DNA of 64,000 nt from Squalus acanthias (Eukaryota): assembly GCA_030390025.1 (NCBI GenBank), contig CM059431.1, forward strand, positions 148,058,001-148,122,000. The letters run 5' to 3'. Of the stretch, positions 584 to 62,049 are shown piece by piece (position 1 is the first letter of the stretch; every line of letters starts with the position of its first letter). The notes beneath the pieces are model-generated. The model was not told the origin of the DNA. It ran no database searches and worked only from the letters and a program-made list of their open reading frames with translations. Made by a program: the position numbers and the translations under genes.

Positions 584-3500
584 CATAAGAACATAAGAAC
601 ATAAGAAATAGGAGCAGGAGTAGGCCAATCGGCCCCTCGAGCCTGCTCCGCCATTCAATAAGATCATGGCTGATCTGATCCTAACCGCCAATCTACTATC
701 TATCACAGAACCATCTCCTGCATCTAACAGAATTGCACACACGAAATATGAGCAGAATCAGGCTACACGGTCCCTGGGCACGCTCCACTACCCACAGGGC
801 CATGACCGATCCGAACCTAGACTCATGTCCAAATTCCTGCCCGCTCCCCGTAACCCTTAATGCCCTTTACTTCTAGGAAACTGTCTATTTCTGTTTTAAA
901 TTTATTTAATAATGTAGCTTCTACAGCTTTTTGTGGCAGCATATTCCATGGACTTACCACCCTCTGAGTGAAGTAGTTCCTCCTCATCTCAGTTTTGAAA
1001 GAGCAGCCCCTTATTCTAAGACTATGTCCCCTAGTTCTAGTCTCACCCGTCATCGGGAACATCCTCCCCGCATCCACCCGATCCAACCCCTTCACAATCT
1101 TATATGTTTCAATAAGATCGCCTCTCATTCTTCTGAACTCCAATGAGTAGAGTCCCAATCTACCCAACCTCTCCTCATATGACCACCCCCTCATCCCCGG
1201 GATAAACCGAGTGAACCTTTTTTGCACTGCCTCGAGAGCAAGGATGTCTTTCCTTAAGTAAGGACACCAAAACTGTATGCAGTATTCCAGGTGCGGTCTC
1301 ACCAATACCTTGTACAACTGAAGCAATACCTCCCTATTTTTATATTCTATCCCCTTAGCAATGAAAGGCAACATTCCATTTGCCTTCTTAATCACTTGCT
1401 GCACCTGCATACTAACCTTTTGAGTTTCGTGCACCAGGACCCCCAGATCCCTTTGCACTTCAGTACTCTCCAGTTTCTTGCCATTAAGATAATAAATTGC
1501 TCTAGGATTTTTCCTGCCAAAGTGCATCACCTCACACTTTCCAGTGTTGTGTTACATCTGCCAAATCTCTGCCCACTTACTTAGCCTGTCTATGTCCCCT
1601 TGCAGGTTTTTTATGTCCTCCTCACTCACTACTTTCCCTCCCATCTTTGTATCATCTGCAAATTTTGATATGTTACACTTGGTCCCTTCCTCCAAATCGT
1701 TAATATAGATTGTGAAGAGTTGGGGAGCCAGCACTGACCCATGTGGAACACCACTAGTTACTGATTGCCAGTCTGAGAATGAACCATTTATCCCAACTCT
1801 TTGCTTTCTGTTAGATAGCCAATCCTCTATCCATGCCAGAATATTACCCCCAATCCCGTGATTTTTTACCTTAAGCAATAATCTTTTGTGTGGCACCTTG
1901 TCAAATGCCTTTTGGAAGTCTAAATACACTACATCCACTGGTTCCCCTTTATCCACTCTATATGTTACTTCCTCAAAGAACTCCAGCAAATTTGTCAAAC
2001 ATGACTTCCCCTTCGTAAAACCATGCTGACTTTGTCCTATTAAATTATGATTATCCAAATGTCCTGTTACTGTTTCCTTAATAATGGACTCCAAAATTTT
2101 ACCTACCACAGATGTTAGGCTAACTGGTCTATAGTTACCAGCCTTCTGTCTACTGCCCTTTCTTTAATAAGGGTGTTACATTAGCAGTTTTCCAGTCTGC
2201 CGGGACCTTAGCGGAATCCAGGGAGTTTTGAAAAATTATTACCAATGCATCTACAATCCCTACCGCCACTTCCTTCAAGACTCTAGAATGTAAGCCATCA
2301 GGTCCAGGTGATTTATCCGCCTTGAGTCCCATTATTTTACTGAGTACCACTTCCTAGGTGATTTTGATCGTGTTTAGCTCCTCTCCCCCTATAGCCCCCT
2401 GTTTGTCCAGTGTTGGGATATTCTTAGTGTCCTCTACTGTAAAGACTGATACAAAATATTAATTCAGTGTTTTTGCCATCTCCATATTTCCCACCATTAA
2501 TTTCCCGGTCTCATCCTCTAAGGGACCAACATTTACTTTAGCCACCCTTTTTCATTTTATATAACTATAAAAACTCTTACTATCTGTTTTTATATTTTTT
2601 GCTAATTTACTTTCATAATCTATCTTCCCTTTCTTAATCAATCTTTTTGTTCTTTTTTGCTGCCTTTTAAAGTTTTCCCAATCCTCTGTCCTCCCACTAG
2701 ATTTCGCTACCTTATATGCCCTTGTTTTTAGTCGAATACTATCCTTAATTTCTTTACTTAGCCACGGATGACTGTCCCTTCTTTTACACCCTTTTCTTTT
2801 CAGTGGAATATATTTTTTTTGGAATTTGTAAAATAACTCCTTGAATGTACACCACTGATCATGTGTCGTCTTACCCTTTAATCTATTTTCCCAATCCACT
2901 CTACTCAATTCCGCTCGCATACCTTCATAGTCTCCTTTATTCAAGCTTAGCACGCTTGTTTGAGATCCAACCTTCTCACCCTCTAATTGAATATGGAATT
3001 CAACCATGTTATGGTCACTCATTCCAAGGGGATCCTTTACTAGGACATTTTTAATTAATCCTGTCTCGTTACACAGGACCAGATCTAAGGTTGCTTGCCC
3101 CCTGGTCGGTTCAGTTACATACTGCTCAAGAAACCCATCCCTAATACACTCAATGAACTCATCCTCATGGCAGCCCTGCCCCATTTGATTTGTCCAATTA
3201 ATATGATAGTTACAATCCACCATAATTATAGATGTTCCCTTATTACATGCCTCAACTATTTCCTGATTGATACTCCGTCCAACAGAGTTGCAACTGTTCG
3301 GAGGCCTATAGACTACGCCCACTAGTGTTTTTTTCCCCTTATTATTCCTTATCTCCACCCAAACTGTTTCATTATCATGATTTTTTGACCCAATATCATT
3401 ACTCTGTATTACAGTGATTCCTTCCTTTATCAACATAGCCACCCCACCTCCCCTTCCTTCCTGCCTGTCCTTCCTGATCGTTAAATAACCTGTTATGTTT

Positions 3501-5060
3501 AATTCCCAGGCATTGTCACCCTGCAGCCATGTTTCTGTAATGGCCACAATATCATAACCATATGTAGTTATTTGTGCCATTAACTCGTCTATTTTGTTAC
3601 GAATGCTACGTGCATTCAGATAGAGAACTTTCAAATATGCTTTGTGGCACTTAGTTCCTGCTTTTTCACTTTTTACCACTTTACCTTTTACTCCACACAC
3701 TCTGTCCCTTCCTGCCACGCTCTGATTTGTGATTCCCCTACTGCTACCTATGTCTATGACCCTCTCTGTTATCATTTTTATTTTTTGCTCTCTTGAAACC
3801 TCCCCCCCACTAATTAGTTTAAAGCCCTCTCCACAGCCCTAGTTATTCGATTCGCCAGGACACTAGTCCCAGCACTGGCCAAGTGAAGTCCGTCCCAACG
3901 GAACAGCTCTCTCCTGCCCCAGTACTCGTGCCAGTGTCCCAAGAAGCAAAACCCATTTTTCCCACACCAGTCTTTGAGCCACGCATTCAACTCCCTGATT
4001 TTATTTACCCTAGCCAAATTTGCTCGTGGCTCAGGTAGTAATCCAGAGATTATTACCCTCGAGGTTCTGCTTTTTAATTTGGCCCCTAGCTGCTCAAACT
4101 CCCTCAGCAGAACCTCTTTGCTTGTCCTATCTATGACATTGGTACCAACATGGACCACGACAACTGGATCCTCCCCCTCCCACTCCAAGTTTCTCTCCAG
4201 CCCAGAGGAGATGTCCTTAACCCTGGCACCGGGCAGGCAACACAGCCTTCGGGATGCTCGCTCTTGGCTGCAATTAACCCTATCTATCCCCCTAATGATA
4301 CTATCCCCTACCACTACAACATTTCTTTTTACTCCTCCCACTTGAATGGCCCCCCTTACCACGGTGCTGTGGCCAGGTTGCTCATCCTCCCTGCAGTCCC
4401 CGCTCCTATCCACACAGGGAGTAAGAGCCTCGAACCTGTTGAACAAGAGCAAGGGCTGCGGCTCCTCCAACACTACCTCCTGGATCCCTGTACCTGCCTC
4501 ACTCGTAGTCACACCTTCCTGTCCCTGACCACGGGCTACTTCTGAATTAGTTACTCTAATTGGTGTGACTACCTCCTGAAACACGGAGTCCAGGTAACTC
4601 TCCCCCTCCCTGATGTGTCGCAGTGTTTGAAGCTCGGACTCCAGCTCATCAACACGGAACCGGAGTTCCTCGAGCAGCCAACACTTACTGCAAATGTGTT
4701 CACCGTGAACATCAATGGTGTCCACCAGCTCCCACATATTGCAGCAGTAACACATCACCTGCTCTCCCATTCTATGTAATTAATTAAAAATTTATTATTT
4801 ACCCTTCAGTTAATTTATGCCAGCAGTCTCCGCTACACCACAGATACCCGAGAAACTATAAACTATTGAATTGAAGTTTTGTATAAAAAAAAGAGAAATA
4901 CTCACCAACCAATCACTTACCTGCTTTCTGGTGACGTCACACTTCGATTATTTTTTACCTCTCCACTGCTCTCGGCTTGGTGAAAGCCTACCTGGTCGCT
5001 GCCGCCCTTTACCGCCGCCGCCTCGCCGCTGTTGCTCCACCCAGGTCCGCCGCCAAATAT
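584..5060 (-). mobile_element. Full-length CR1 LINE (5' UTR, intact ORF1, disrupted ORF2, (TTCTTATG)n tail)
   Basis: ORF1 is at 4770-3814. ORF2 is in pieces from 3775 to 823, with APE (YLNARS, ITETW), RT ([17 protein letters not shown]) and a CR1 C-terminus. An octamer tail lies at ~584-607. Confidence 0.95.
3814..4770 (-). CDS. CR1 ORF1p (CxxC zinc finger, leucine zipper, SGNH esterase-like domain), 318 aa
   Basis: CYCCNMW...CSKC, LRFRVDELESELQTL, VVGDS, HVGTN and DGLHL motifs; the frame is uninterrupted. Confidence 0.9.
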   Translation of the reverse strand: MGEQVMCYCCNMWELVDTIDVHGEHICSKCWLLEELRFRVDELESELQTLRHIREGESYLDSVFQEVVTPIRVTNSEVARGQGQEGVTTSEAGTGIQEVVLEEPQPLLLFNRFEALTPCVDRSGDCREDEQPGHSTVVRGAIQVGGVKRNVVVVGDSIIRGIDRVNCSQERASRRLCCLPGARVKDISSGLERNLEWEGEDPVVVVHVGTNVIDRTSKEVLLREFEQLGAKLKSRTSRVIISGLLPEPRANLARVNKIRELNAWLKDWCGKNGFCFLGHWHEYWGRRELFRWDGLHLASAGTSVLANRITRAVERALN

Positions 5061-16749: not shown

Positions 16750-19700
16750 TGATACATGCAACAGGATTCTGAGAGGGTTGTGGATAACACATTTAGTGAG
16801 TTGGTCACACCGCAGGTTAAGGCCAGCGTAGATAGTACATGGGTGACCAAAAGGCAGAGCAAGGGCAGGAAGGTAGTGCAGAAATCCCCTGGGGTTGTCT
16901 CCCTTAGCAACAGGTTCACCGCCTTAGGTGCTGTTGTCGGGGGGGATGACTCATCGGGGGAAGGCACCAGCAGCCAGGCTCATGGCACCATGACTGGCTC
17001 GGTTGCAAAGAAGGGAGGGAAAAAGAGTGGCAGGGCTATAGTAATAGGGGATTCGATTGTAAGGGGAATAGATAGGGGTTTCTGTGGTCGCGACCGAGAC
17101 TCCAGGATGGTATGTTGCCTCCCTGGTGCAAGGGTCAAGGATGTCTCGGCGCGGGTGCAGAACATTCTGGAGGGGGAGGGGGAACAGCCAGTTGTCGTGA
17201 TACATGTTGGTACCAACGACGTAGCTAAAAAAGGGGAAGAGGTCCTACAAGTAGAATTTAGGGAGTTAGGAGCCAAGCTAAAAAGTAGGACCTCGAAGGT
17301 AGTAATCTCTGGATTACTACCAGTGCCACGTGCTAGTAAGAGTACAGAGAACAGGATAGTTAGGCTAAATACGTGGCTTGAGCAGTGGTGTAAGAGGGAG
17401 GGTTTTAAATTTTTGAGGCATTGGAACCAGTTTTGTGGTAGGTGTGACCTATACAAAAGGGACGGTCTACACCTGTGCAAAGATGGAACTGATGTTCTCG
17501 GGGTAATTTTTGATAAAGCAGTTCGGGAGCATTTAAACTAGTATGGCAGGGGGCTAGAAACCTATGTAGTGAAATAGAGGAAAGTGAAAGGCAGACAGAA
17601 ATAAATGGTAAAAGGGTGAGGAACAAAAAACAAAGGGCCAAACTAATTCATAAAAAATGTGAGCATAAAAAAAGCCTGAGGGTTTTATACCTTAATGCGA
17701 GAAGCATCAGGAACAAGGTAGATGAATTAGCTGTGGAAATAGAGGTTAATAATTATGATCTAATTGGGATTACGGAAACATGGTTGCAGGGTGAGCAGGG
17801 CTGGGAGCTTAACATACAGGGGTATTCAGTACTTAGGAAGGATCGACAAAAAAGAAAGGGAGGAGGGGTAGCATTGCTGGTAAAAGAAGGGATAAATGCA
17901 ATTGAAAGGAAGGATATTAACTCAGTTAATACAGAATCTATATGGGTGGAGCTAAGAAATAGCGAGGGGCGAAAAACATTAATAGGAGTGGTATATAGGC
18001 CTCCAAATAGTAAAATAGAGGTTGGGGAGGGCATCACGAGGGAAATTAGAGAAGCGTGCAATAAGAGCACAGCTGTCATCATAGGTGACTTTAACTTACA
18101 TATAGATTGGAATAGCCTAATCAGTAAAAATAATGAGGAGGAGGAATTCCTTGAGTGTTTAAGGGATGGTTATCTGGATCAATATGTCGAGGAACCAACT
18201 CGGGAACAGGCTATATTGGACTGGGTACTGTGCAATGAGAAGGGACTAATTAGTAATCTTGTTGTACGGGGACCCTTGGGTCAGAGCGATCATAACATGA
18301 TCGATTTCTCACTCGAAATGGAGAGCGAAGAAATTGACTCAGATACTAAGGTCCTGAATTTAAACAAGGGGAATTATGATGCCATTAGACGGGAACTGAG
18401 TAGGTCTGATTGGACAACGTTCCTGGGAGGACTGGAGGTAGATAAACAATGGCAAGCATTTAAAGATAGAATGACAAAATTGCAAAAATTGTTTATACCA
18501 ATCTGGCATAAAAGGAAATCTAAAAAGGTGACTCAACCGTGGATAACAGGGGAAATTAGAGACAGCATAAAATCCAAAGATAGGGCGTATAAAATAGCCA
18601 AAAAAAGCGCCAGAGCGGAAGATTGGGAACAGTTTAAGATAGAGCAAAGGAGGACAAAGGGCTTAATCAAGAGGGGCAAAATAGCTTACGAAAGCAAGCT
18701 GGCGGAAAATATAAAAACTAACTCCAAAAGCTTTTATAAGTATATCAAGAGGAAAAGACTGGTGAAAACCAAAGTTGGCCCATTGCAGTCAGATACGGGG
18801 GAATATATAACGGGAAATAAGGAAATGGCAGACCAACTAAATGCATACTTTGGGTCAGTCTTTACGAAGGAAGACACAAAAAACCTCCCTGGGATATCGG
18901 GAAAAATAGGGACATTTGCAAAGGAGGAACTGACGCAAGTCAATATCTCTAAGGATATGGTGTTAAGGAAGCTAAAGGGATTGAAGGCGGACAAATCCCC
19001 AGGGCCTGATAACATGCATCCTAGGGTGCTGAAGGAGGTGGCCCTAGAGATAGCGGATGCACTAAGTATGATTTTTCAGAATTCATTAGACTCGGGAACA
19101 GTGCCCATGGATTGGAGGGTAGCTAACGTTACCCCACTATTCAAAAAGGGGGGTAGGGAAAAAGCAGGTAATTACAGACCTGTAAGCCTTACATCAGTTG
19201 TGGGCAAAATGCTGGAGTCCATCATTAAGGATGAAATAGCGGAGCACTTAGCAAATGGGGACAGGATAGGACAGAGTCAACATGGATTTACAAAGGGTAA
19301 ATCGTGCTTGACTAATCTATTGGAATTTTTTGAGGGAGTAACTGGTAAAATAGATGGGGGAGAGCCAGTAGATGTGGTGTACCTGGACTTCCAAAAGGCC
19401 TTCGATAAGGTCCCACATAAAAGATTAGCAGGGAAAATTGAAGCTCATGGGATAAAGGGGAAAGTATTGACGTGGATAGAGAACTGGCTGTCAGATAGAA
19501 AACAGAGAGTTGGAATAAACGGCTCATTTTCTGAATGGCAGGCAGTAACAAGTGGGGTACCACAGGGATCTGTCCTGGGTCCCCAGCTGTTCACAATTTA
19601 CATTAATGACCTGGATCAGGGAGTCGGATGCAGCATTTCCAAATTTGCAGACGACACTAAACTAGGAGGGGGGGGTGGGCTCAGAGGAGGAGACCAGGAA

Positions 19701-20583
19701 GCTCCAGAGCGATTTGGACAGACTGGGTGATTGGGCGGATAAATGGCAGATGCACTATAATGTGGACAAGTGCGAAGTTATCCACCTTGGGTGCAGGAAC
19801 GGGAGGGCAAATTATTATTTAAATGGCAATAAATTGGGAGAGGGGGAAGTACAGAGAGACCTGGGTGTTCTTGTACACCAGTCACTGAAGGCGAGCATGC
19901 AGGTGCAACAGGCGGTCAAGAAGGCAAACGGTATGCTGGCCTTCATAGCAAAAGGGTTGGAATACAGGAACAGGGATACCTTGCTGCAGCTGTACAGGGC
20001 ACTGGTGAGACCACACCTCGAGTACTGTGTACAGTTTTGGTCGCCTCATCTGAGGAAAGATGTTCTTGCCATGGAGGGGGTGCAGCGGCGATTCACCAGG
20101 CTGATACCAGGAATGGCGGGATTGACCTATGAGGAGAGACTATGTAGTTTAGGGATGTACACACTGGAGTTTAGAAGATTGAGAGGGGACCTCATAGAAG
20201 TGTATAAAATTCTGACAGGTCTAGACAGACTAGATGCAGAAGGAATGTTTCCCTTGGCGGGTGAGAACAGAACTAGAGGACATAATTTAAGGATAAGGGC
20301 TAAACCATTCAGGACAGAAATGAGGTGGAATTTCTTCACTCAGAGGGTGGTGAACCTATGGAACTCATTGCCACAGAGGGCAGTGTACGCCAGCTCATTA
20401 AATATATTTAAGAGGGAATTAGATATATTTCTACAGGCAAAAGGGGTTAAGGGTTACGGAGAGAAGGCGGGGACGGGATACTGAATTGGAGGATCAGCCA
20501 TGATCTCATTAAATGGCGGAGCAGGCTCGAAGGGCCGGATGGCCGACTCCTGCTCCTATCTTCTATGTATCTATGTATCTATG
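16750..20583 (+). mobile_element. Young CR1 LINE in the GPCR intron (5'-truncated ORF1, near-intact ORF2)
   Basis: ORF1 is at 16756-17541. ORF2 (17616-20484) is broken only by one extra G in a G8 run at ~19668-19675. Tail is (CTATGTAT)n. Confidence 0.95.
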
Positions 20584-28340: not shown

Positions 28341-29351
28341 TAAATGTAGACAACTACTTAACATCAGAGGAGGAAGGCAAACAATCCCATCACTGCGCAT
28401 CACCCACACACCCTCTTCTCTGGGTCGTAACCACATGGAAACCTCTTATTATATTCAAGCACATCAAGTGATTGCAACCTCAGTGAAGCCCAAGGGTTTT
28501 GCCAAACACTGTTTCATCAAAGTGAGGCCCCTTTAAGGGAACGGGTCAAACAGTGAGTTCACAGAGCAAGCCTCACCCTCACACTGCGCATCACAGTGAG
28601 ATCAGACATCACAATCAGGTTGTAAACTGGGCAGTTTGAGGCAGGAGGCTGCACAACCAGTTTAAGTGAAGGGAAGGGAACGGCACTGACTGTGACTAAC
28701 TGGCTGATCGATCTAGGAGTGATTGTGATCAGTTGAATATCGAAACCGGTTTACTTTGTGAAGGGAGTGTTAGCAATGGAAATATCGCTCGCCAGCTGAC
28801 ACTCAGAAGGTTGTTGCTGTAGGACGTTTGTTTAGACCTGTACTTCCAGCGACATCATTCCCTGTGGAGGATCAGAGTGATTAACTTAAAATCCGCTGCA
28901 GTGACCGTGCAGATAAAATGGCATAAGACCTGGAAACTTAACTGACGAAGGTCAGAGCATGTGTAGGCAGGGTGTGGGAGAGTGGGAGAAGCTGAGTGTG
29001 GGAAAAAAGTGGTTGGGGCTGGGTGGGGGAGAGTGGTAGGGGCGGGGAGTTTAGGAGGTGCTTGATGGGGTTTGAGTGGAAGTTGCAGGGTGGTGTTAAG
29101 TGGGAGGGTCTGGGTGAGGGACAGTGGGAGAGCCTGGGTGGGGAGAGTGGGAGGGTTGGGGTAGGGTTAGACTGGGGGGGCTGGGTGGAGGCAGAGTGGG
29201 ATGGGTTAGGTGTGGGGAGAGTGTGACGGGCGGGGTGGGTTAGAGTGGGAGGGACTGTGTGGGGAAGAGTGGGAGGGTTTGTGTGTGGTGGGAGGGCCTG
29301 GTTTGGGGAATATTGGGAGGGGCTGTGTGGGGAAGAGTGGGAGGGGCTGGG

Positions 29352-32300
29352 TGTCGTAAGAATGAGCCTTATGCGTGGTGAACTTAAAGTAAGCTTTAAT
29401 CAACTAAAAAGGTGCTACATACAAAAGAGGTCTTACTCTATGCCTCTCCAGGATCCAACTGCTCAGTCCAGTATTTATCCTGGACTAATCACAGGAAGTG
29501 ATGCAATAAAGTTTGAGTCACAGGAAGCTGTATTGTGTTACCACATTCTCCCCCCCCAAAAGATTAGGAGGCCGGGATGCTCCCTCCATTTCGTAGCCGC
29601 CGGACGAGGGAGAGCCGCACCCGTTTGGGTTCTCGTAGCCCGTTTACCCGCCGCGGGCCGTGGACCAGAGTCCGAGTGATCCAGCCCGCTCTGTGAGGGG
29701 TCAGGACGATCCTGACTGTGTACTGGTGCCCGAACGGGTGTCGGGCAGGGCTGTGGCAGATCCGTTTCCGAGCGTATGGTACGGGGTGGATCGTGGCTGC
29801 GCGTGCGAGCCCCGACGGGCTCATAGTCAGTCTGCCCCAGGTCGGCACGCTGGAGTGAGGTATCAGCCGGCGTCAGATCCAGATCGTGATTAGAGGCACC
29901 TGGCGAGCCCAGAGATGTGCCTGGTACAATATCATCCCCTGGTGTCCCTCTATGTTTCGGCGGGCAGGGAGCCAGATCCCGCAATGACACGGTAGATTCC
30001 CGACCGTCAGGATACCGAATATAGGCGTAGGTAGGGTTGACGTCAGTGAGCTCAACCTCATCTACCAGGGGGTCATTCTTAGACGCCCGGACATATCTTC
30101 GGAGTAGCACTGGTCCCGGTGCAGTCAGCCACGACGGGAGAGATATCCCATAGGATGAGCGACGCTGAAATCGGAAGAACCGTTCATGAGGCGTCGTATT
30201 TGTGGCGGTCGAAAGGAGGGACCGTGTGGAGTGTAATGCGTCTGGAAGTACTGCTTCCCATTGCTGGTTGGGTAGGCCCCGAGATCTCAAAGCCAGACGT
30301 ACCGCATTCCAGATGATAGCGTTAAAACGCTCGACTTGCCCATTCCCGACCGGATGATAAGGCGTCGTTCTGCTGGCAGCAATACCCCGTTCCGAGAGAT
30401 AGGCCTTGAGTTCTCCTGACATAAAAGAAGGGCCCCGATCCGAATGAACATAGGATGCCATGCCACAGAAAGCAAATACCTGCTCAAGGCAGCTGATAAC
30501 CGTGGTCGTCAGCATATTGGGGCAGGGAAAGGCAAACGGAAAACGGGAATACTCATCGACCATGGTCAATAGATAAGTGTTGCGAGTTGAAGAGGGCAAC
30601 GGCCCCTTAAAATCGATGCTAAGCCGTTGCATTGGCTGGGTCGCATGTATGAGTATACCACCCGAGGGGCGGAAAAACTGAGGTTTCAATTCCGCACAGA
30701 CTCTGCAGTCCGAGCACATCTTCTTTACATGCCCGGTAGAGAATGGGAGATTTCGGGACCGCACGAAGTGCAGCATGCGAGTAACGCCCGGATGACACAA
30801 CCCATCATGGATGTCTACGAGCGTAGAGGGTGCCATGGCGGAGAAGAATGCTCGTGTGAGGGTATCCGGAGCCACATTCTCCTTGCCAGGTCGATAGTGG
30901 ATGGTGTAACCAAAAGAGGTCAATTCCAGCCGCCAAAGCTGGATTTTATTATTTTTAATTTTGGTCCGTTTTCGATTATCGAGCATGAAGGTGACCGATC
31001 GCTGGTCCGTGATTAAGGTAAAGTGCTGGCGAGCTAGGAGATGAGTCCACTTCCGTACTGCCTCTATGATGGCTGTAGCTTCTTTCTCGACTGGAGGATA
31101 ATGTAGCTCAGCCCCTTGAAAAGTCCTGGACAAAAATGCCACCGGACGACCTTCCTGATTCAGAGTGGCCGAGATCGCCACCTCCGAGGCATCACACTCA
31201 ACAACAAAAGGAAGACTCTCATCGATGGAGTGAAGAGCCGCTTTCTCCAACTGTTTTTTCAGGAGGTTAAAGGCTGCAACAGCCGCTGTGTCTAGTGGGA
31301 ATGTGCTGGCCTTCAGTAGAGGTTGGATTCGGTCCGAGAAGTTAGGAATCCATTTAGCATAGTATGCAAACAGGCCGAGGGCCCGGCGCAAGGAGGCCGG
31401 ATTCTTAGGTGGCGGGAGCTCTTGGAGTGGGCGAAGCCTTTCAGGGTCAGGTTTAATGATGCCATTGCCCACACAATAGCCAAGGATGTTGATGGTTGGT
31501 TGTGACTCAATGGATTTAGCCGCATTTAATGTCAAATTACGGTGCTGGAGTGCATCCCAAAATCGTTGGAGATTGGCGTCATGTTCCCGCTGATTGCGAC
31601 CTGCGACAGTAATATTGTCCAGATAAGGAAACGTATCCTTCAAGTCTTCCTGTTTGACCAGGTCATCCATTGCTCGCTGGAAGACAGCCACTCCATTAGT
31701 GACCCCAAAGGGGAGGCGACGAAATTGATACAGCCGTCCATTGGCTTCAAAGGCCGTATACTGCTTGTCTGAGACCTTCAAGGGTACCTGATGATAGGCA
31801 CTTTTCAGATCATATGTTGAGAACACCGTGTACTCAGCCAGTTTATTAACCATATCATCGATGCGCGGCAATGGGTATGCATCCAAGTCCGTATATTGAT
31901 TGATGGTCTGTGAATAGTCAATGCACAGCCGTTTCTTGTGAGGTTGTAGAGGGTTCTTAACAATAACGACCTGGGCGCGCCATGGCGACGAACAAGGCTC
32001 GATGATATCCTCTGCTAAAAGCCGAGAAATCTCAGCCGCAATAAAAGACTGGTCTTCCTGACTGAAACGTCGTGACTTTGTTATAATCGGTTTGCATCGA
32101 GGAGGGATACTGGTAAACAGTGAGGGTTCATCCAGTGAAGCTGCTGACAATGCACAGAACGGTAATCGAGGTCGTATATTAGAAATAGTGAGTTCAGGTT
32201 TGGATCCGCCGAACTCAATGGTGAGCTTCTTATGCTGCTTTTGAAAATCCAGCCCTAAGATAAGATCACTACATAAGTCCTTGAGCACCGAAAGCCGGGT

Positions 32301-33775
32301 GGAGGGATACCTGTGACCATTAAGTGTTATTTCAACCATACAAAAGCCAGAAATTCTGGTATTAAGTGATGACTGAGCCATCGCAATTGCCTGGTCCGAT
32401 GGGAAAACATGTAGCTTTAACTCTGCAACAATCTGTTCCCTAATGAAACTATCAGTGCTACCTGAGTCAATTAAGGCATCTAAAGTATGTCCATTAATTG
32501 ATGCTTTTGTAGCTGCATGGAATAGGTTCTGAGGACAAGCAGCTGTAATTGGTGTTGTTGCACAAAGAGTGGCTGAAACTCTAGGTGTGTTTCTTCGAGA
32601 GAAAACCCGAGAGGAAGCACGATAGATTTTAGCCGGAACATCTTGATAGGCCCTTACCGGGGCAGTTCGGTAGGACTTAGCTTGATAAGCCCTCGTAGAG
32701 GCTCTTGATAGGCAAACCTTTGCAAAATGACCCTTTTTGTTGCAATGACTGCAAAACGCATTGCGAGCAGGGCAGAATTTCCGAGGGTGAAACTCATCAC
32801 CACAAAAGAAGCATTTCTTAGATTGCCAAGAGGCTGCCACAGTGGGGTCATCATCCTCTTCATCAGTGAAGTCATCAGATTGATCGTCAGGGATAAAGTC
32901 CTCCCTAATAGAGTTCACCTGTGGCCTCTTAAATTGCCTGACTGTAGTTAAGGCAGCAGACCGAGGTCTGGGCACTGTATAAAGGTCTGCATTCCTTTTT
33001 GCCAGATCTAGAGAGCAAGCCATGTCATAAGCTCTCTGAAGCGCAAGTGTCTTACTTTCCAGTAGACGCTGGCGTATAAATGGGGAGGCAAGCCCGCAGA
33101 TGAAAGCATCACGGATCATTTCTTCACGGTACAGCTCAGCTGAGGCCGCCTGAAAGTTACAGTCCATACTAAGTCTGCGAAGCTCTTGGAGGAATTTATC
33201 AATGGATTCCTCCGGCCCTTGTTGGGCTGTAGCTAGTAGATGTCTGGCATAGACCTCATTCGGTGTCTTAGTATATAGTCTTTTAAGCGTCCGAATTGCC
33301 TCCTCGTAACTGCCCCATTCCTCAACATACTGAAATACATTCGGAGTGACACAGTTGATGAGTATCCGCAACTTTGTGTCATCATCAGCCTTGCAATATT
33401 CGAGAAAATTGTCAAACGTGCGATACCAGTGTTTCCACACCTTACCGGCTGCTGGGGTGTTTGGGTCCAAGTCAAGACGCGATGGTTTAAGGATGTTTTC
33501 CATGATGGGTGATTCCCTGGATCCTTAGTTCCGAGTTCGTCCAAAAAGTTTGAGTGCGAAGTTTTTCAAAGTTGATTAAATTGTCGTAAGAATGAGCCTT
33601 ACGCGTGGTGAACTTAAAGTAAGCTTTAATCAACTAAAAAGGTGCTACATACAAAAGAGGTCTTACTCTATGCCTCTCCAGGATCCAACTGCTCAGTCCA
33701 GTATTTATCCTGGACTAATCACAGGAAGTGATGCAATAAAGTTTGAGTCACAGGAAGCTGTATTGTGTTACCACA
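29352..33775 (-). mobile_element. Complete, young Ty3/Gypsy LTR retrotransposon
   Basis: 194-bp LTRs (29352-29545 and 33582-33775) with TG...CA ends and 1 mismatch. 5-bp TSD CTGGG (29347-29351 and 33776-33780). PPT at ~29557-29546. Single long ORF. Confidence 0.97.
29538..33503 (-). CDS. Gag-Pol polyprotein (Gag, 2 CCHC knuckles, protease, RT, RNase H, integrase), 1321 aa
   Basis: CFFCGDEFHPRKFC and CSHCNKKGHFAKVC; LIDSGS; DLKSAYHQ, LPFG, YLDN; CDAS, EKEA, TDQ; H-x4-H...CRVC; IDFKG, HSDRG, QVER. Confidence 0.95.
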   Translation of the reverse strand: MENILKPSRLDLDPNTPAAGKVWKHWYRTFDNFLEYCKADDDTKLRILINCVTPNVFQYVEEWGSYEEAIRTLKRLYTKTPNEVYARHLLATAQQGPEESIDKFLQELRRLSMDCNFQAASAELYREEMIRDAFICGLASPFIRQRLLESKTLALQRAYDMACSLDLAKRNADLYTVPRPRSAALTTVRQFKRPQVNSIREDFIPDDQSDDFTDEEDDDPTVAASWQSKKCFFCGDEFHPRKFCPARNAFCSHCNKKGHFAKVCLSRASTRAYQAKSYRTAPVRAYQDVPAKIYRASSRVFSRRNTPRVSATLCATTPITAACPQNLFHAATKASINGHTLDALIDSGSTDSFIREQIVAELKLHVFPSDQAIAMAQSSLNTRISGFCMVEITLNGHRYPSTRLSVLKDLCSDLILGLDFQKQHKKLTIEFGGSKPELTISNIRPRLPFCALSAASLDEPSLFTSIPPRCKPIITKSRRFSQEDQSFIAAEISRLLAEDIIEPCSSPWRAQVVIVKNPLQPHKKRLCIDYSQTINQYTDLDAYPLPRIDDMVNKLAEYTVFSTYDLKSAYHQVPLKVSDKQYTAFEANGRLYQFRRLPFGVTNGVAVFQRAMDDLVKQEDLKDTFPYLDNITVAGRNQREHDANLQRFWDALQHRNLTLNAAKSIESQPTINILGYCVGNGIIKPDPERLRPLQELPPPKNPASLRRALGLFAYYAKWIPNFSDRIQPLLKASTFPLDTAAVAAFNLLKKQLEKAALHSIDESLPFVVECDASEVAISATLNQEGRPVAFLSRTFQGAELHYPPVEKEATAIIEAVRKWTHLLARQHFTLITDQRSVTFMLDNRKRTKIKNNKIQLWRLELTSFGYTIHYRPGKENVAPDTLTRAFFSAMAPSTLVDIHDGLCHPGVTRMLHFVRSRNLPFSTGHVKKMCSDCRVCAELKPQFFRPSGGILIHATQPMQRLSIDFKGPLPSSTRNTYLLTMVDEYSRFPFAFPCPNMLTTTVISCLEQVFAFCGMASYVHSDRGPSFMSGELKAYLSERGIAASRTTPYHPVGNGQVERFNAIIWNAVRLALRSRGLPNQQWEAVLPDALHSTRSLLSTATNTTPHERFFRFQRRSSYGISLPSWLTAPGPVLLRRYVRASKNDPLVDEVELTDVNPTYAYIRYPDGRESTVSLRDLAPCPPKHRGTPGDDIVPGTSLGSPGASNHDLDLTPADTSLQRADLGQTDYEPVGARTRSHDPPRTIRSETDLPQPCPTPVRAPVHSQDRPDPSQSGLDHSDSGPRPAAGKRATRTQTGAALPRPAATKWREHPGLLIFWGGRMW

Positions 33776-35993
33776 CTGGGTGTTGGAAGAGTGAGAGCGC
33801 CTAGGTGGTGTTAGAGTGGAATTTGATCGGTGGGGTAGAATGGGAGGTGCTGTGTGGGAGGAGTGTGTTGTTGGATGGGTGGGGGCAGAGTTGGAGGGGC
33901 TGGGTAAGTTCAGAATGGGAGGGGCTGGGTGGTGTTAGAGTGGTATAGGATGAGTGGGGGAGAGTGGGAGGTGCTGGGTGGGGGAGAGTGTGATGGGATG
34001 GGTAGGGGAGAGTGGAAGGGTCTGGGTCAGGGTACAGTGGGAGTGGCTGGGTGGGGTAGAGTGTGAGGGGCTGGGTGCGGGGAGTGTACGAAGTGCTGGG
34101 TGGGGTTGAATGGGAGGGGCTGGGTTTGGTTATAATAGGAGGGGCTGGGTGGGATTAGAGTGGGAGGGGCAGCGTATGGTTAGAGAGGGAGGTGCTGGGT
34201 GGGCTAGGAGTGGGAGGGCCTGGGTGGAATTAGAGTGGGAGGGACAACGTGTGTTTAGAGTGGTAGGCTCTGTGCGGGTTTGGTGCGAGAGAGGCTGTTT
34301 GGTGTTGCAGTGGGTGGGGCTGGGTGAGGTTGGAGTTTGAGTGGCAGGGTAGGAAAGGTGGGGGCGCTGGGTTGGGTAGAGTGTTAGGGACTGGGTGAGG
34401 TAGGAGTACATGGGGCTGTGTGGGGTTGGAGTGGGTGGGTATTGTTGGGGTTAGAGTAGAAGGGTTTTTGGTGATGTTGGAGTAGGAGGGGATGGTTGAG
34501 AAAGAGTGGGAGGGGCTGGGTAGGGTTAGATTGGCAGGGTCTGTGCGGGGTTGGAGTGGGAGAGGCTGGGTGGTGTTAGAGAGGCAGGGGTTGGGTGTAG
34601 AAGAGTGGGTAGGACAGGATGTGTGAGGCTGGGAGTGGTTGCGTGTGTTTGGAGTGGGAGTGAATGGTTGAGAAAGAGTGGGAGGTGCTGGGTGGGGTTA
34701 TATTGGCAGGGTCTGTGTGGGGTTGGAGTGGCAGGGGCTGGGTGGTCTTAGAGTGGCAGTGGCTGTGTGTAGGAGAGTGGGTAGGACAGGATGTGTGAGG
34801 CTGGGAGGGGTTGGTTGGGGTTGCAGTAGGCGGGACTGGGTGACGTTAGAGTGGCAGGTGTAAGGTGGGGGCGAGTGGGAGGCGCTGGTCGTGTTAGAAT
34901 GGGAGGGGCTGGTAGATTTAGACTGCAAGAGGCTTGGTGGGGAGAGTGGGAGAGGTTTGCTAGGGAAGAATGGAAGGGTTGGGTGGGGGAGAGTGGGGGG
35001 ACTGGGTGGGGTTAGAGTGGCATGTGCTGTGTGGTAGATAGTGTGTGGGACAGGACGGGGAGGTTGGGAGGGTTGGGTGGGTTTGGATTGGGCGTGGCTT
35101 GGTGGGGGAGAGTGGGAGCGGTTGGCTGGGGGAAGTGAGGGAGTGTCTGGATGGGGGAAATTGGGAGGGGCAGAGTGGAGGAGAGTGGGAGAAGCTGGGG
35201 TGAGATTGGAAGGGGCTGGGTGGGGTTGGAGTAGGAGGGGCTGGGTGGTGTTAGATTGGATGGGGTTGGGTGGGAAAGACTGGGTGGGTTTGGATAAGTA
35301 GAGTGGGTTGGGCTGGGTGGGGTTGGAATGGGAGGGGCTGATTGGTGTTAGAGTGGGAAGGGCTGGGTGTAGGAGATTGTGAGGGGCTGCATTGTGTTGG
35401 AGTGGGAGGGGCTATGAGCGGGAAAGAGTGAGGGGCTAGGTGGGGGAGAATGGTAGGGGCTGGCTGGGGGAACAATGGGAGGGGTTGGGTGTGAGGAGAG
35501 TGGGAGGGGCTTGGTGGGGGAAGAGTTGGAGGGGCTGGTTGAAAGGAGAGTGGGAGGGCTTTTGTGGGGGAGAGGGGAGGGGCTGTGAGGGGCTGAGCGG
35601 GAGGGGCTGGGTGGGTTTAGAGTGGCAGAGGCTGGATGGGGGAGAGTGGGAGTGATTGGATGGGGCAGAGTGGGAGGGACAGGGTGGGGGACAGTGGGAG
35701 TTGCTGGGTGGGGGAGAGTGGGAGGGTCTAGCTGGGGGAAGAGTGGGTGGGGCTGGGTCGGGTTGGAGTGGGATGGGCTGGTTGGGATTATAGTGGGTGG
35801 TGCTGGGCGGAGAAGTGTGGGAGAGCCTGGGTGAAGGAGAGTGGCAGGGGTTGGCTAGGAGCTGGTGAGTGTGGAGGGCAGGGTGGTGGAGGGTGGGCGT
35901 GGCAGGGAGGGAGGAGATTGCGAGGATTTGGATGGGGAGAGTGGGAGGGGCAGGGTGAGGGACTGGGATGGGGCTAGAATGGGAGGGGTTGCA

Positions 35994-52980: not shown

Positions 52981-55900
52981 TAGAATCATAGAATCATAGA
53001 AGATAGGAGCAGGAGTAGGCCATTCGGCCCCGCTAGCCTGCTCCGCCATTCAATGCGATCATGGCTGATCATCCAAATTCAGTACCCTGTCCCTGCTTTC
53101 TTCCGATATCCCTTGATCCCTTTAGCCTTAAGAAATATATCCAACACCTTCTTGAATCTATTTAATGAATTGGCCTCTACTGCCTTCTGTGGCAGAAATT
53201 TCCACAGGTTCACCACTCTCTGGGTGAAGAAATTCCTCCTCATTTCTGTCCTAAATGGCTTACCCCTTATCCTTAGACTGTGACCTCTGGTTCTGGACTC
53301 CCCGACCATCGGGAACATCCTTCCTGCATCAAGTTTGTCCTTCCTGTCAGAATTTTATAAGTTTCAATGAGATCCCCTCTCATTCTTCTAAACTCCAGCG
53401 AGTATAAGCCCAATCGACCCAATCTGTTTTCATACGTCATTCCTTCCATCCCAGGTATCAGCATTGTGAATCTTCGCTGAATTCCTTCCATGGCAAGAAC
53501 ATCTTTCCTCAGATGAGGCGAACAAAACTACACACAGTACTCAAGGTGTGGTCTCACCAAGGCCCTGTACAACTGCAGCAAGACATCCTTGTTCCTGTAC
53601 GCAAACCCTCTCGCTATGAAGGCCAACATACCATTTGCCTTCTTTACCGCCTGCTGCACCTGCATGCTTACCTTCAGCGACTGGTGCACAAGAACACCCA
53701 GATCTCGTTGCATTTCCCCTTCTCCCAATCTATTGCCATTCAGATAATAATCTGCCTTTCTGTTTTTGACACCAAAGTGGATAAGCTCGCATTTATCCAC
53801 GTTATATTGCATCTGCCACGCTTCTGCCCAATCACCCAACCTGTCCAAAACATCCTGGAGTTTCTCGGCATCCTCCTCGCAGCACACACGCCCACCCAGT
53901 TTTGTGTCATCTGCAAACTTGGAGATATCACATCTTGTTCCCTTGTCTACATCATTAATATATATTGTAAATAGCTGGGGTCCAAGGACCGATCCCTGTG
54001 GTACCCCACTAGTCACTGCCTGCCACTCGGAAAACGACCCGTTATTGCAACTCTTTGCTTTCTGTCAGCCAAACAGTTCTCTATCCAAGTCAATACCTTG
54101 CCCCCAATCCCATGTGCCTTATCTTTACACGCTAATCTCTTAAGCGGGACCTTATCAAAAGCCTTTTGGAAGTCCAAATACACCACATCCACTGGTTCTC
54201 CCTTATCTATTTTACCAGTTACATCCTCAAAAAATTCTAGTAGATTAGTCAAGCATGATTTACCTTTTGTAAATCCATGTTGACTTTGTCCGATCCTGTC
54301 ACTGTTTTTCAAGTGCTCAGCTATTACATCTTTTATAATGGACTCTAGCATTTTCCCCACTACCGATGTCTGGCTTACCGGTCTGTAATTCCCCGTTTTC
54401 TCTCTACTACCCTTTTGAATAGTGGGGTAACATGAGCTACCCTCCAATCCATGGGTACTGTTCCAGATTCCATCGAATGTTGGAAGATGATCAGCAATGC
54501 ATCTACTATTTCTAGGGCCTCTTCCTTAAATACGCTTGGATGTAGATTATCAGGCCCTGTGGATTTATCGGCCTTCAATCCCTTCAATTTCCCTAACACC
54601 ATTTCCCTACAAATACTGATTTCTTTCAGTTCCTCCCTTTCATCAGACCCTATGTTCCCCAACATCTCTGGGAGGTTATTTGTGTCCTCCTTTGTGAAGA
54701 CAGAACCAAAATATGTATTTAATTGGCCTCACATTTCTTTGTTCCCCATTATAAGTTACCCTGATTCTGACTGCAAGGGAACTATGGTTGATTTCACGAA
54801 TCTTTTTCGCTTCACATATCTATAAAAGCTTTTAGAGTCAGTTTTTATGTTCCCTGGAAGCTTACTCTCGTATTCTAGTTTCCCCTTCTTAATTAATCCC
54901 TTTGTCCTACTTTGTTGAATCTTAAACTGCTCCCAATACACAGGGTTACTGCTTTTTCTGGTCAATTTATAAGCCCTCTCCTTGGATCTTACGCTATCCC
55001 TAATTTCCCTTGTTAGCCACGGTTTAGTCACCCTTTTTGTTTTATTCTTATGACAAACTGGGATGAACAAATTCTGTAGTTCGCCCATGCGGTCTTTGAA
55101 TGTTTGCCATTGCCTATCCACCGTCATCCCTTTGAGTGACATTCCCCAATCAATCCTACCCAACTCGCACCTCATACCATCGTAGTTTCATTTATTTAAA
55201 TTCAGGACCCTAGTCTCTGAGTCAACTACTTCACTCTCCATCCTAATGAAGAATTCTATCATATTATCATCGCTCCGACCCAAGGGGCTTCGCACAACAA
55301 GATTGCTAATTAATCCTTTCACATTGCATAATATCCAGTCTAAGATGGCCTGATCTCTGTTTGGTTCCTCGACATATTGGTCCAGGAAAGCATGCCGTAA
55401 ATACTCCAGGAATTCCTCCTCCATAGTATTGTTACTAATTTGGTTAGCCCAATCTATATGTAGATTAAAGTCACCCATGATGACTGCTGTGCCCTTATTG
55501 CACGCTTCTCTAATTTCCCTTTGAATGCTATCCCCAACCTCCACATTACTGTTTCGTGGTCTATATATCACTCCCACTAACGTTTTCTGGCACTTGTTAT
55601 TTCTCAGTTCAAGCCATACAGATTCCAGATCATCAGAGCTAATATCCTTCCTCTCAATTGTGTTAATCCCCTCTTTAACCAGCAATGCTACCCCAACTCA
55701 CGTTCCTTTTTGCCTATATTTCCTGAATATTGAGTACACTTGGATGTTGAGTTCCCAGCCTTGGCCACCCTGGAGCCATGTTTCGGTAATCCCAATCAAA
55801 ACATATTCGTTTACCTCTATTTGCGTAGCCAATTCAACCACCTTGTTCCGAATGCTCCTTGCATTAAGACACAAAGCCTTCAGGCTTGTTTTTTTAACGC

Positions 55901-57250
55901 TCTTAGACCTATTAGAATTAGTATTTACTGTGGCCATGTTTGATTTAAACCGTTGTTTTCTCTGACTGCCACTTTTGTTTTTCTCCTTCCTATCTTTTGC
56001 TTTTAGCCTTGTTTCCCTTTCCTCTGTTTCCCTGCTAAGGTTCCCAACACCCTGCCATTTTAGTTTAAACCCTCCCCCAGAGCTCTAGCAAACACTCCCC
56101 CAAGGACATCGGTCCCGGCCCTGCCCAGGTGTAGACCATGCGGTTTGTACTGGCCCCACCTGCCCCAGAACCGGTTCCAATGCCCCAGGAATTTGAATCC
56201 CTCCCCCTTGCACCCTTCCTCTAGCCACGTATTCATTTGAAATATCCTTCTATTTCTACTCTGACTAGCACGTGGCACTGGTAGCAATCCTGAGATTACT
56301 ACCTTTGAGCTCCTATTTTTTAATTTACCTCCTAACTCCCTATATTCTGCTTTTAGGACCTCATCCCGTTTTCTACCTTTTTCGTTGATACCTATATGCA
56401 GCACGACAACTGGCTGTTCACCCTCCCCTTCCAAAATGCTCTGTAGCCGCTCTGAGACATCCTTGACCCTTGCATCAGGGAGGCAACATGCCATCCTGAA
56501 ATCTCGTTTGCGGCCGCAGAAACGCCTATCTATTCCGCTTACAATAGAATCCCCTATCACTATAGCTCTCCCATTCTTTTTCCTCCCATACTGTGCAGCA
56601 GAACCAGCTACGGTGCTAGGAAGTTGGCTGCTGCTGTCTTCCCCTGATAAGCCATCTCCCTCAACAATATCCAAAGCGGTATATCTGTGTGAGATGGGGA
56701 TGGCCACGGGGGACCCCTGCACTACGTGCCTGCGCCTATTACTCTGCCTGGTGGTCACCCATTCCCTTCCTGCCTGTACACCCTTTACCTGCGGTGTGAC
56801 CAACTCCCTAATCGTGCTATCCACGATGTCCTCAGCATCGCGATGCTCCAGTATTCATCCATCCACAGCTCCAGTGCCACAATGCGGTCTGTCAGTAGCT
56901 GCAGCTGGATACACCTCCTGCACACATGGGTTCAGGGACACAGGAAGTGTCCTTGATTTCCCACATAGTGCAGGAAGAGCCTGTCACAGCGCCGAGCTGT
57001 CCTGGCATGACTTACCCTTTAATTAATTAATTAATCAATTAATTAAAATTAAATTTAAATTAAATGGATCCCATCAATTACACTGGAATTAAGTGATATA
57101 CTCAAGGGCCCTTGCTTAACAGTATTTCCCGCTACACAAAGAGACCGCAGAAACCACAAAATTAAAGTTTACAAAAATTGAGAAAGAAAACACTCACCAA
57201 ACGATCACTTACCTGCTTTTTGGTGACGTCACACTACGAATACTTTTTAC
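52981..57250 (-). mobile_element. Near full-length degenerate CR1 LINE
   Basis: (TTCTATGA)n tail, ORF2 fragments from 55937 to 53079, ORF1 at ~57008-56060, and a 5' UTR motif shared with the CR1 at 4901-4945. Confidence 0.93.
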
Positions 57251-60622: not shown

Positions 60623-62049
60623 ATGGGGCGACCAATTATTCTGCTGATCAAAGAGATTTACTACCCGATTCTCGCTGCCGTCGTTGTCCTCGGTGAGCCA
60701 ATGTAACCTGTTTGTTGTTAATCTGTCTTAACTGTCATCTTGTTCCTGCAGCCTGTTGGATAAGGTAACGTGTTTCCCGGATGTCAACATTACACAGTCG
60801 GTAGTTACCGGAACAAACTCGTGAACTGTGAGTCCGCACTTTCTGCTTTCCCTATAATGCGATAATTTTACTGATGTTACAATAATCTTTGAAGGTCCAA
60901 CACGGGATTTTAGCTGATTTCCGGACCGTCTTGTCACCCCGTGCAGAGTGGGCAGTGCAGCGGTTCATCAAAATGTGTGGGTGTGTTTCCCAGGTCATGG
61001 CTCCAATATTAATCCTGTTCTCACACTGCTCCATGTTGATAATCACACTGACTGGACTGAGATGCTCTCAACAGGTATTTCCATATCTATTTCAATCAGA
61101 CACTGGGACATTATTTCTCTCCTCTCTCTTTCTTACAGCGAACATGGTGACAATTGTGATTCTCTCCCGAGGAAACTGCGGCCTTTCCAAGTGTATCTCG
61201 GTCTACATGGTGGCCATGGCAACAGCGGATCTACTGGTCATGATCATTAATGTAATGGTGTATCGTATTTTCAGTTTTCACTTTCCACTTTCATTCCTGT
61301 CCCACACTCCCGTGTGTAGGCTAATTATATACATGGCTACTGTCACCTTCGATTTGTCTGTTTGGTTCACCGTCTCCTTCACGTTTGATCGATTTGTAGC
61401 TCTCTGCTACCAGAAGTTTAAAACGAGGTATTGGACCGAGAGATCTGCGACTGCGATTATAGCAACCTTCTCTGTTTTGAGTGGTTTTAAGGATATTCCA
61501 TTTTTGTTTGCATATGAACCTCAGCAAATAATCAACAATCAACATTGGGGCTGCGGATCAAGTCTGGCTTTCTTTCACTCCCCTCTAGGTGTGGGGTACG
61601 TCTGGTTTCACAGCGCCTGGTTGGTTTGGCTTCCCTTTACTTTAATTCTCCTCTTTAATTCATTAACGGTCCGCCGTATTTTAGTGGCCAATAGAGCCCG
61701 CAGAGGACTGCGGGGTCACAGGACTGAGAATCACAGCGATCCAGAGATGGAGAGCCGGAGGAAATCCATCATTTTACTGTTCACTATATCGGGCAGTTTT
61801 ATACTGTTGTGGTTGACAGCTGCCGTGAGTTTTGTAACTACCAGACTGACAAACACCAATTATTACCGAGGCGATCACACAGCCACTGGATATATCGCCA
61901 CGGAAGCCGGAACATTGCTGAAGTTTTTGAGCTGCTTTCAAAACCCGTGTATTTATGCAGCGACCCAGAGGAAATTCAGAGCAGAGCTGAAGAATGTGGT
62001 GAAATCTCCCTGGACACTGATTCTGAGATTAGTTAGAAATAGCGGATAA
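60623..62049 (+). CDS. GPR139/GPR142-like class A GPCR, two exons (60623-60692 and 61139-62049), intact, 326 aa
   Basis: Exon 1 encodes MGRPIILLIKEIYYPILAAVVVL and ends at G|GTGAGC. The acceptor is tttcttacag|CG, a phase-1 intron at the same position as in GPCR 1. Motifs YMVAMATADL, FTFDRFVALC, DPEMESRRKS and NPCIY are present, with seven hydrophobic segments. Confidence 0.9.

Follow-up and report, generated by a model that had tools for sequence, protein, structure and literature searches.

In the self-primed retrotransposon Tf1, the RNA's first 11 bases pair with its primer-binding site (PBS), and a cut by RNase H falls between bases 11 and 12 (PMC7175516). The same priming was proposed for Tj1 of S. 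japonicus (PMC4600332), and the self-primer is located in R (PMC5341516). A chromodomain is present in all seven of the fission-yeast elements treated in PMC10085805, for which a three-duplex structure is described. Self-priming was also predicted, from complementarity between the long terminal repeat (LTR) and the PBS, for the TAR/Houba/Osr-1 lineage of plant Ty1/copia elements (PMC6317226); since this lineage is unrelated to Tf1, a repeated origin of self-priming has precedent. Skipper and the fungal GalEa have neither a tRNA site nor LTR complementarity (PMC5006619, PMC5445492), the self-primers named in the available text of PMC6934838 are fungal only, and a TGG next to the LTR is the signature of tRNA-primed elements (PMC5006619). 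Within the literature covered, self-priming is so far tied to the Tf1/sushi chromoviruses and one plant copia lineage.

The element described here lies on the minus strand of a 64,000-nucleotide stretch of Squalus acanthias DNA (contig CM059431.1, positions 148,058,001 to 148,122,000), the whole of which is called the window below. Like Tf1/Tf2 of Schizosaccharomyces pombe, Tj1 and Tosmo/Tcry, it has no tRNA site (PMC7175516, PMC4600332, PMC10085805), and as in those elements a segment of the LTR, 11 bases there and 11-16 here, is complementary to a PBS adjoining the LTR. A single ORF is shared with Tf1, and a U5-end stem beside the PBS is predicted as well. Unlike the fission-yeast elements, it carries no chromodomain, has two CCHC-type Gag motifs and, together with most relatives, a YxDN reverse transcriptase (RT) motif. 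Predicted self-priming, in animal genomes as well, is shared with the Tf1/sushi group of vertebrates and fungi and with the plant Tcn1 (PMC10085805, PMC6317226), but those are chromoviruses, whereas the window lineage lacks a chromodomain and counts corals, crustaceans, a nematode and a tunicate among the sources of its homologues. The element is therefore kept out of Tf1/sushi, despite its Tf1-like sequence signature. From TAR/Houba/Osr-1, which has the copia domain order and plant hosts, it differs by the order PR-RT-RH-IN.

Structure of the element

The element (Table 1) is a young Ty3/Gypsy retrotransposon. It has TG...CA LTRs, a target duplication, a polypurine tract, the Gypsy domain order (Pfam) and an RT of the Ty3 type, and the two LTRs are identical at 193 of 194 positions, the single mismatch being 29372 versus 33602. 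The ORF encodes Gag with two CCHC-type motifs, protease, RT (YLDN), RNase H and integrase, and the closest solved structure is Ty3 Gag-Pol (E 6.8e-59). With a Pfam threshold of E=1, neither the last 271 aa nor any of three full-length homologues matched a chromodomain, and the chromodomain accession was absent among the 120 homologues listed. The insertion site is a 24-25-bp minisatellite; the target duplication lies inside this tandem repeat and is therefore less diagnostic than usual.

Table 1. Positions of the features of the element in the window.
Feature	Position	Strand	Remark
Ty3/Gypsy LTR retrotransposon, full-length	33775-29352	minus	4424 bp
Target-site duplication CCCAG, 5 bp	upstream copy 33776-33780, downstream copy 29351-29347	minus	
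5' LTR	33775-33582	minus	194 bp, TG...CA
TATA-like GATAAATA	33709-33702	minus	loop of a perfect 7-bp inverted repeat (33695-33716), in U3
Initiator-like TTAGTT, predicted transcription start	33637-33632	minus	overlaps first A of the arm (33635)
LTR arm AGTTGATTAAA, predicted self-primer, 11 nt	33635-33625	minus	last six bases are ATTAAA
Short hairpin (predicted)	33612-33624	minus	directly 3' of the arm
U5-end stem (predicted)	33585-33603	minus	adjoins the PBS
One-base spacer, A	33581	minus	between LTR-terminal CA and PBS
Primer-binding position TTTAATCAACT	33580-33570	minus	exact complement of the LTR arm
Single ORF, 1321 aa	33503-29538	minus	stop codon inside the 3' LTR
Polypurine tract, 12 purines	29546-29557	minus	directly before the 3' LTR
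3' LTR	29545-29352	minus	194 bp
3' LTR copy of arm and hexamer	29405-29395	minus	no PBS downstream; predicted working poly(A) signal

Several further observations concern the element and its surroundings. The minisatellite, degenerate and G-rich, flanks the element at 28966-29353 and 33776-35962. The ORF reads through the polypurine tract and is about 100 aa longer than those of typical relatives (1200-1220 aa), and an indel near 29635 (29538-29700 region) separates public contigs of the same family from the window. The RT catalytic motif is YxDN, not YxDD, in the window and in 89 of the 120 homologues listed, the remainder being YxDD in 27 and without a match to the regular expression in 4; many copies nevertheless carry near-identical LTRs and must therefore have been active recently. 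Elsewhere in the window, LINE copies with a GDSL-esterase ORF1 and an endonuclease/RT ORF2 are located at 2552-4779 (minus), 16753-20484 (plus) and 53076-56854 (minus), the third being identified by an inverted-repeat match and its ORF1 hit. An uninterrupted frame of 387 aa at 60886-62049 (plus) contains a rhodopsin-family 7TM receptor domain (E 3.5e-22), and a 47-bp tandem array starting near 57109 neighbours this frame.

Complementarity between the LTR and the primer-binding position

As originally noted, no TGG stands next to the 5' LTR, and the 11 bases behind the spacer pair with the LTR arm over 11 bp with no mismatch. For the 86-nt region, folding gives z = -2.9. Whichever of the eight RNA starts tried is used, nine of the 11 pairs keep a probability of 0.87-1.0; the pairs at the two ends are less probable (0.66-0.86 and 0.42-0.43). 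The proposed extension of the helix can be traced in the letters, with T5 (33640-33636) and A5 (33566-33562) set off from the helix by TTG, but it is weak, contributing three pairs to the minimum-energy fold and none to the centroid. The sole difference between the LTRs disrupts the predicted U5-end stem in the 3' copy only. A minority of public contigs from the window's own family carry an extra base at 33634/33635, by which the duplex grows to 12 bp.

Conservation of the duplex in related elements

Relatives were collected from metagenomes (65 loci, from the best 80 of 605 confirmed stretches) and from genome contigs (10 loci, plus 2 new ones), while scans of viral contigs found none. Among the 75 loci and the window, a Gag start was present in 35 and enough upstream DNA in 30. 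The PBS was located by an anchor made up of CA, one base and a T-rich start, a rule that does not use complementarity and was written after the data had been seen; it placed the PBS in 29 of these 30 loci, window included, L061 staying unanchored. In the window and 12 relatives, the LTR end was fixed independently of the anchor by paired LTRs. Repeats in L001, L012, L026, L066, L067 and L068 were rejected as paired LTRs because they are circular-assembly overlaps, and the repeat pairs of L071 and L072 were also rejected as LTR pairs and left uncounted.

The best upstream 11-base match to the PBS in the 29 anchored loci (window included) was 11/11 in 21, 10/11 in 7 and 9/11 in 1. Four loci examined separately pair as well (L077 over 17 bp, L013 over 14 bp, L019 over 12 bp, L061 at 10/11), L061 with unrelated letters. 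Loss of the complementarity in related elements would have spoken against the original prediction; all 32 assessable relatives retain the duplex in the same register, L021, L068 and L073 being unassessable without usable upstream DNA and L076 being a duplicate of L071. The duplex is usually 13-16 bp long in the relatives, with extremes of 10 and 18 bp, and its letters differ between them. TGG was found at the PBS start in 0 of the 29 anchored loci and in none of the four further loci.

The named homologues come from the corals, crustaceans, nematode and tunicate mentioned above, and RT-RNase H identity to the window is 52-76% for properly extracted rows and 47% for L068. A quick tree without outgroup, in which L033 and L044 are mis-extracted long branches, shows the spread of the sequences only. 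The loci L066-L077 are eukaryotic retrotransposon contigs within bacterial MAGs, likely host contamination. The RT-RNase H of L013 is nearly identical to P0119, which is labelled an unverified contaminant in Armadillidium vulgare.

Covariation across families

The 29 anchored loci were grouped into 20 families at 70% identity, and the first member of each was taken, pairing not being a criterion. With the arm register picked by best match, 213 of 220 cells are paired at positions 1-11, as compared with 160.5 +/- 4.9 after exchange of the arms among families, a level of pairing reached in 0 of 20000 permutations; since the families are related, the permutation counts are descriptive and not true probabilities. 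When the register is left free, the best 13-mer scores 12.4/13 against the family's own LTR and 9.2 against the LTRs of other families (380 cross pairs), and perfect 13-mers occur in 12 of 20 own LTRs and in 0 of 380 cross pairs. By position, 17-20 of the 20 families are paired through position 13 and 11-12 at positions 14-16, after which pairing falls to chance level from position 17; this sharp end fits a short primer. The spacer is 1 nt long in 20/20 families (A in 17, T in 2, G in 1), a length partly set by the anchor used. A stem begins at the first loop base 3' of the arm in 14 of the 20 family folds.

Compensatory changes across family members, the second consequence to be expected of the original prediction, were found when 17 rows, for the most part a single one from each family (L007, L026 and L036 omitted, L048 replacing L028), were aligned with MAFFT. 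RNAalifold predicts the same helix of 13 pairs from this alignment; its changes are two-sided in 33 cases and one-sided in 0, a result matched by 0 of 500 shuffles. Counted from the pair table, 21 of the 33 two-sided changes are transversions. Registers slid as controls were 22-49% paired, against 92.8% for the true register. The LTR/PBS duplex is a real, selected feature of these elements. With the duplex and its compensatory changes in 32/32 relatives and TGG in none, the proposal of self-priming appears well supported by this comparison.

Replacement of pairs within families

Only 1 of 260 cells in the duplex is a G-U pair, versus 26 of 178 in neighbouring predicted stems, a control taken from predicted folds, which favour G-U. 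The loci L006 and L009 are 98.8% identical over 4.2 kb, yet they differ in the duplex: both LTR arms and the PBS of L006 show a G-C to T-A double change, which would fit a primer site re-copied from the arm. In L004 both arms are changed and the PBS is unchanged, the expected intermediate if the arm changes first and the PBS second. In L036, the LTRs of which are older, a perfect arm is retained in the 3' LTR only. Taken at sequence level, the double changes and the L004 and L036 patterns would be the trace expected of a primer copied into plus-strand DNA; in Tf1, the cDNA 3' end carries the reverse-transcribed PBS (PMC11042837).

Position 14 of the PBS varies inside the L003/L004/L033 and L006/L009/L011/L055 families at 98-99% identity. 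Being just past the 13-bp duplex, this variable position may mark the 5' end of the primer, a reading made post hoc.

Predicted start of the RNA

If priming follows Tf1, the RNA should start at or close to the arm. The TATA-like GATAAATA, noted originally at about 65 nt above the arm, lies at a measured distance of 66 nt, for which reason a departure from the Tf1 geometry had been considered. Among the 29 arms there is no TATA-like motif at a common distance; GATAAATA is therefore not a feature of the clade, and a conserved TATA box was rejected. That concern is further weakened by the initiator-like motif with which the arm begins. TTAGTT fits the INR consensus TCAKTY, as quoted in PMC3601003, at 5 of 6 positions, 19 of 20 families have G at position 10 of the arm, and both the window and L061 have a duplex of exactly 11. 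The initiator-like A is position 11 of the arm, whereas covariation in the relatives reaches at least position 13, at which T is the commonest base; the motif and the boundary of covariation thus do not agree exactly as predictors of the start, and T would be an unusual start base.

Self-priming may also work with another geometry, in which transcription begins far upstream of the arm, for instance some 30 nt past GATAAATA, or the 5' end is formed by splicing or trans-splicing at an acceptor above the arm. The primer would then be cut from an internal position, or be supplied by the arm copy in the 3' LTR or by another RNA packaged alongside. The position of GATAAATA, the variation of duplex length between 10 and 18 bp and the presence of the arm in both LTRs are in its favour. 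So are acceptor-like sites: the 29 arms contain 12 sites at which a pyrimidine tract with YAG ends at 19-30 nt above the 3' end of the arm, a clustering noticed post hoc; one such site, 33645, is in the window (p=0.053), and 6 of 26 best splice-acceptor scores pass p<0.05. Such a signal could reflect a longer or spliced 5' end. Against this, three arms have no site at all, and the signal is missing from most arms; a conserved splice donor between the zinc knuckles and the protease, that is after Gag, was not found, the motif occurring in 2 of the 17 families assessed. The TATA-like motif is not shared by the 29 arms, the complementarity ends sharply after 13-16 bases, and if the primer were long, its 3' tail would stay unpaired at the second strand transfer. 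We regard this geometry as unlikely, though it is the strongest of the alternatives to the Tf1-like one. Acceptor-like sites in U3 at 24-30 nt above the arm end were listed for the window (33645), L013, L029, L034, L060, L064, L067 and L070.

The poly(A) signal within the arm

The ATTAAA of the arm (33630-33625) had been described as the only poly(A)-signal-like hexamer on the LTR sense strand. It is the sole canonical one in a scan for 13 hexamers, but the weak variants AATACA (33764) and GATAAA (33709) are also present. Retroviral poly(A) hairpins hide the 5' poly(A) signal, and a hexamer within a few bases of the cap is weak also through promoter proximity. For the window copy, the suggestion that the duplex suppresses polyadenylation in the 5' LTR only is plausible: the unpaired share of the hexamer is 5% when the PBS is included and 37% when it is left out. 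As it is only 37% unpaired without the PBS, the 3' LTR copy should be partly folded too.

An explanation by which the duplex serves only to hide this signal, with something else as the primer, draws on the canonical hexamer that ends the arm in most families, on the 1-11% unpaired hexamer in 18 of 20 families with the PBS and on the rise of its exposure without the PBS in 20 of 20. Masking is not a general feature, however. Arms ending in GTTAAA, TTTAAA, GATAAA or GGTAAA still keep the duplex, the canonical hexamer lies in the loop, outside the helix, in 4 of the 20 families, and the L061 duplex is present without any hexamer in its arm. A structural helix should, moreover, gather G-U pairs and tolerate register shifts, neither of which was observed, and no alternative primer site is located next to the LTR. 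This explanation is accordingly held to be quite improbable. Since non-canonical arms, arms with loop hexamers and L061 all keep the duplex, masking is not its selected core; it is likely a side effect and, in the window copy, a likely side benefit.

Host RNAs and chance

A host RNA (a tRNA half, a tRNA fragment or another small RNA) might bind the PBS instead, the arm mimicking or guarding it. The D-arm region of some tRNAs presumably resembles the LTR arm, which would count for such a primer. Half-tRNA priming without TGG is, in addition, known in copia lineages (PMC6317226). Neither the window nor 40 loci yielded a tRNA gene with ARAGORN, and Rfam gave no match in 33400-33800 up to E=10, nor in 9 sources at gathering score. 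The 16 distinct PBS 11-mers of the 20 families, however, track their own LTR and not a fixed host RNA, and changes inside a family of 98-99% identity follow the element's own LTR. A host primer is given very little weight. Chance complementarity of A/T-rich sequence, which the nine A-U pairs among the 11 of the window would suggest, is refuted by the fixed register and the covariation in relatives and has next to no probability, only 3 of 5000 dinucleotide shuffles of the LTR giving a match of at least 11 bp that starts within 5 nt of the LTR end.

Discussion

The primer very probably derives from the element's own RNA. The reading that best accommodates the comparison is Tf1-like self-priming with the Tf1 geometry, outside the chromoviruses, to which we assign a probability of roughly 0.6. 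By this mechanism the transcript would begin with the arm or a few bases ahead of it (33635-33640), and its first 11-16 bases would pair back with the PBS. Cleavage by the RT/RNase H of the element would follow the final AAA of the arm (33625/33624), and from the 3' end so produced, minus-strand DNA would be extended over the one-base spacer and 43 bases of R-U5. The register of the duplex, fixed at one base after the LTR end, is where priming must begin. If polyadenylation occurs 10-30 bases past the hexamer of the 3' LTR, the RNA would keep the overlap that the first strand transfer requires. Plus-strand synthesis would then copy the primer into DNA, so that the PBS would be rewritten from the arm in each cycle.

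With regard to the 'pretzel' structure of the fission-yeast elements, the central duplex is present here and the U5 stem is predicted in the window. For the third duplex, between leader and LTR, a longest-match test, which is a crude one, gave 0 of 20 families. The window element further differs from the fission-yeast elements in that its arm overlaps a poly(A) hexamer and its RNA start is a predicted one.

In Cigr-1 of Ciona the LTRs are short and a single ORF spans about 1200 codons. These features resemble those of the relatives found here, among them a tunicate homologue (P0058), and the window lineage may correspond to the Cigr-1 clade, which is a lead only. This clade occurs in molluscs (PMC6238403), and the available text of PMC6238403 and PMC554778 gave no description of a Cigr-1 primer site. 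We found no literature report of self-priming in this lineage, although older papers on the clade, supplements or databases may describe it. The arm motif also occurs in the retrotransposon paper PMC8398367, where it lies in an unrelated sequence.

As a broader and more tentative proposal, which we consider somewhat less probable than not to hold in full, a Gypsy lineage outside the chromoviruses, from corals to vertebrates, may have its own tRNA-free priming, in which one LTR segment would serve as initiator, primer and poly(A) signal, the PBS would be rewritten in each cycle so that the pair drifts as a unit, and the duplex would switch off polyadenylation in the 5' LTR.

If self-priming operates in a widespread animal lineage without a chromodomain, it would be either recurrent or ancestral, which bears on whether hairpin priming came before tRNA priming, a question raised in PMC3601003. 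LTR finders that require a tRNA PBS would under-call such elements. The elements themselves would not need a host tRNA for priming, and they would lack the site that is targeted by tRNA fragments.
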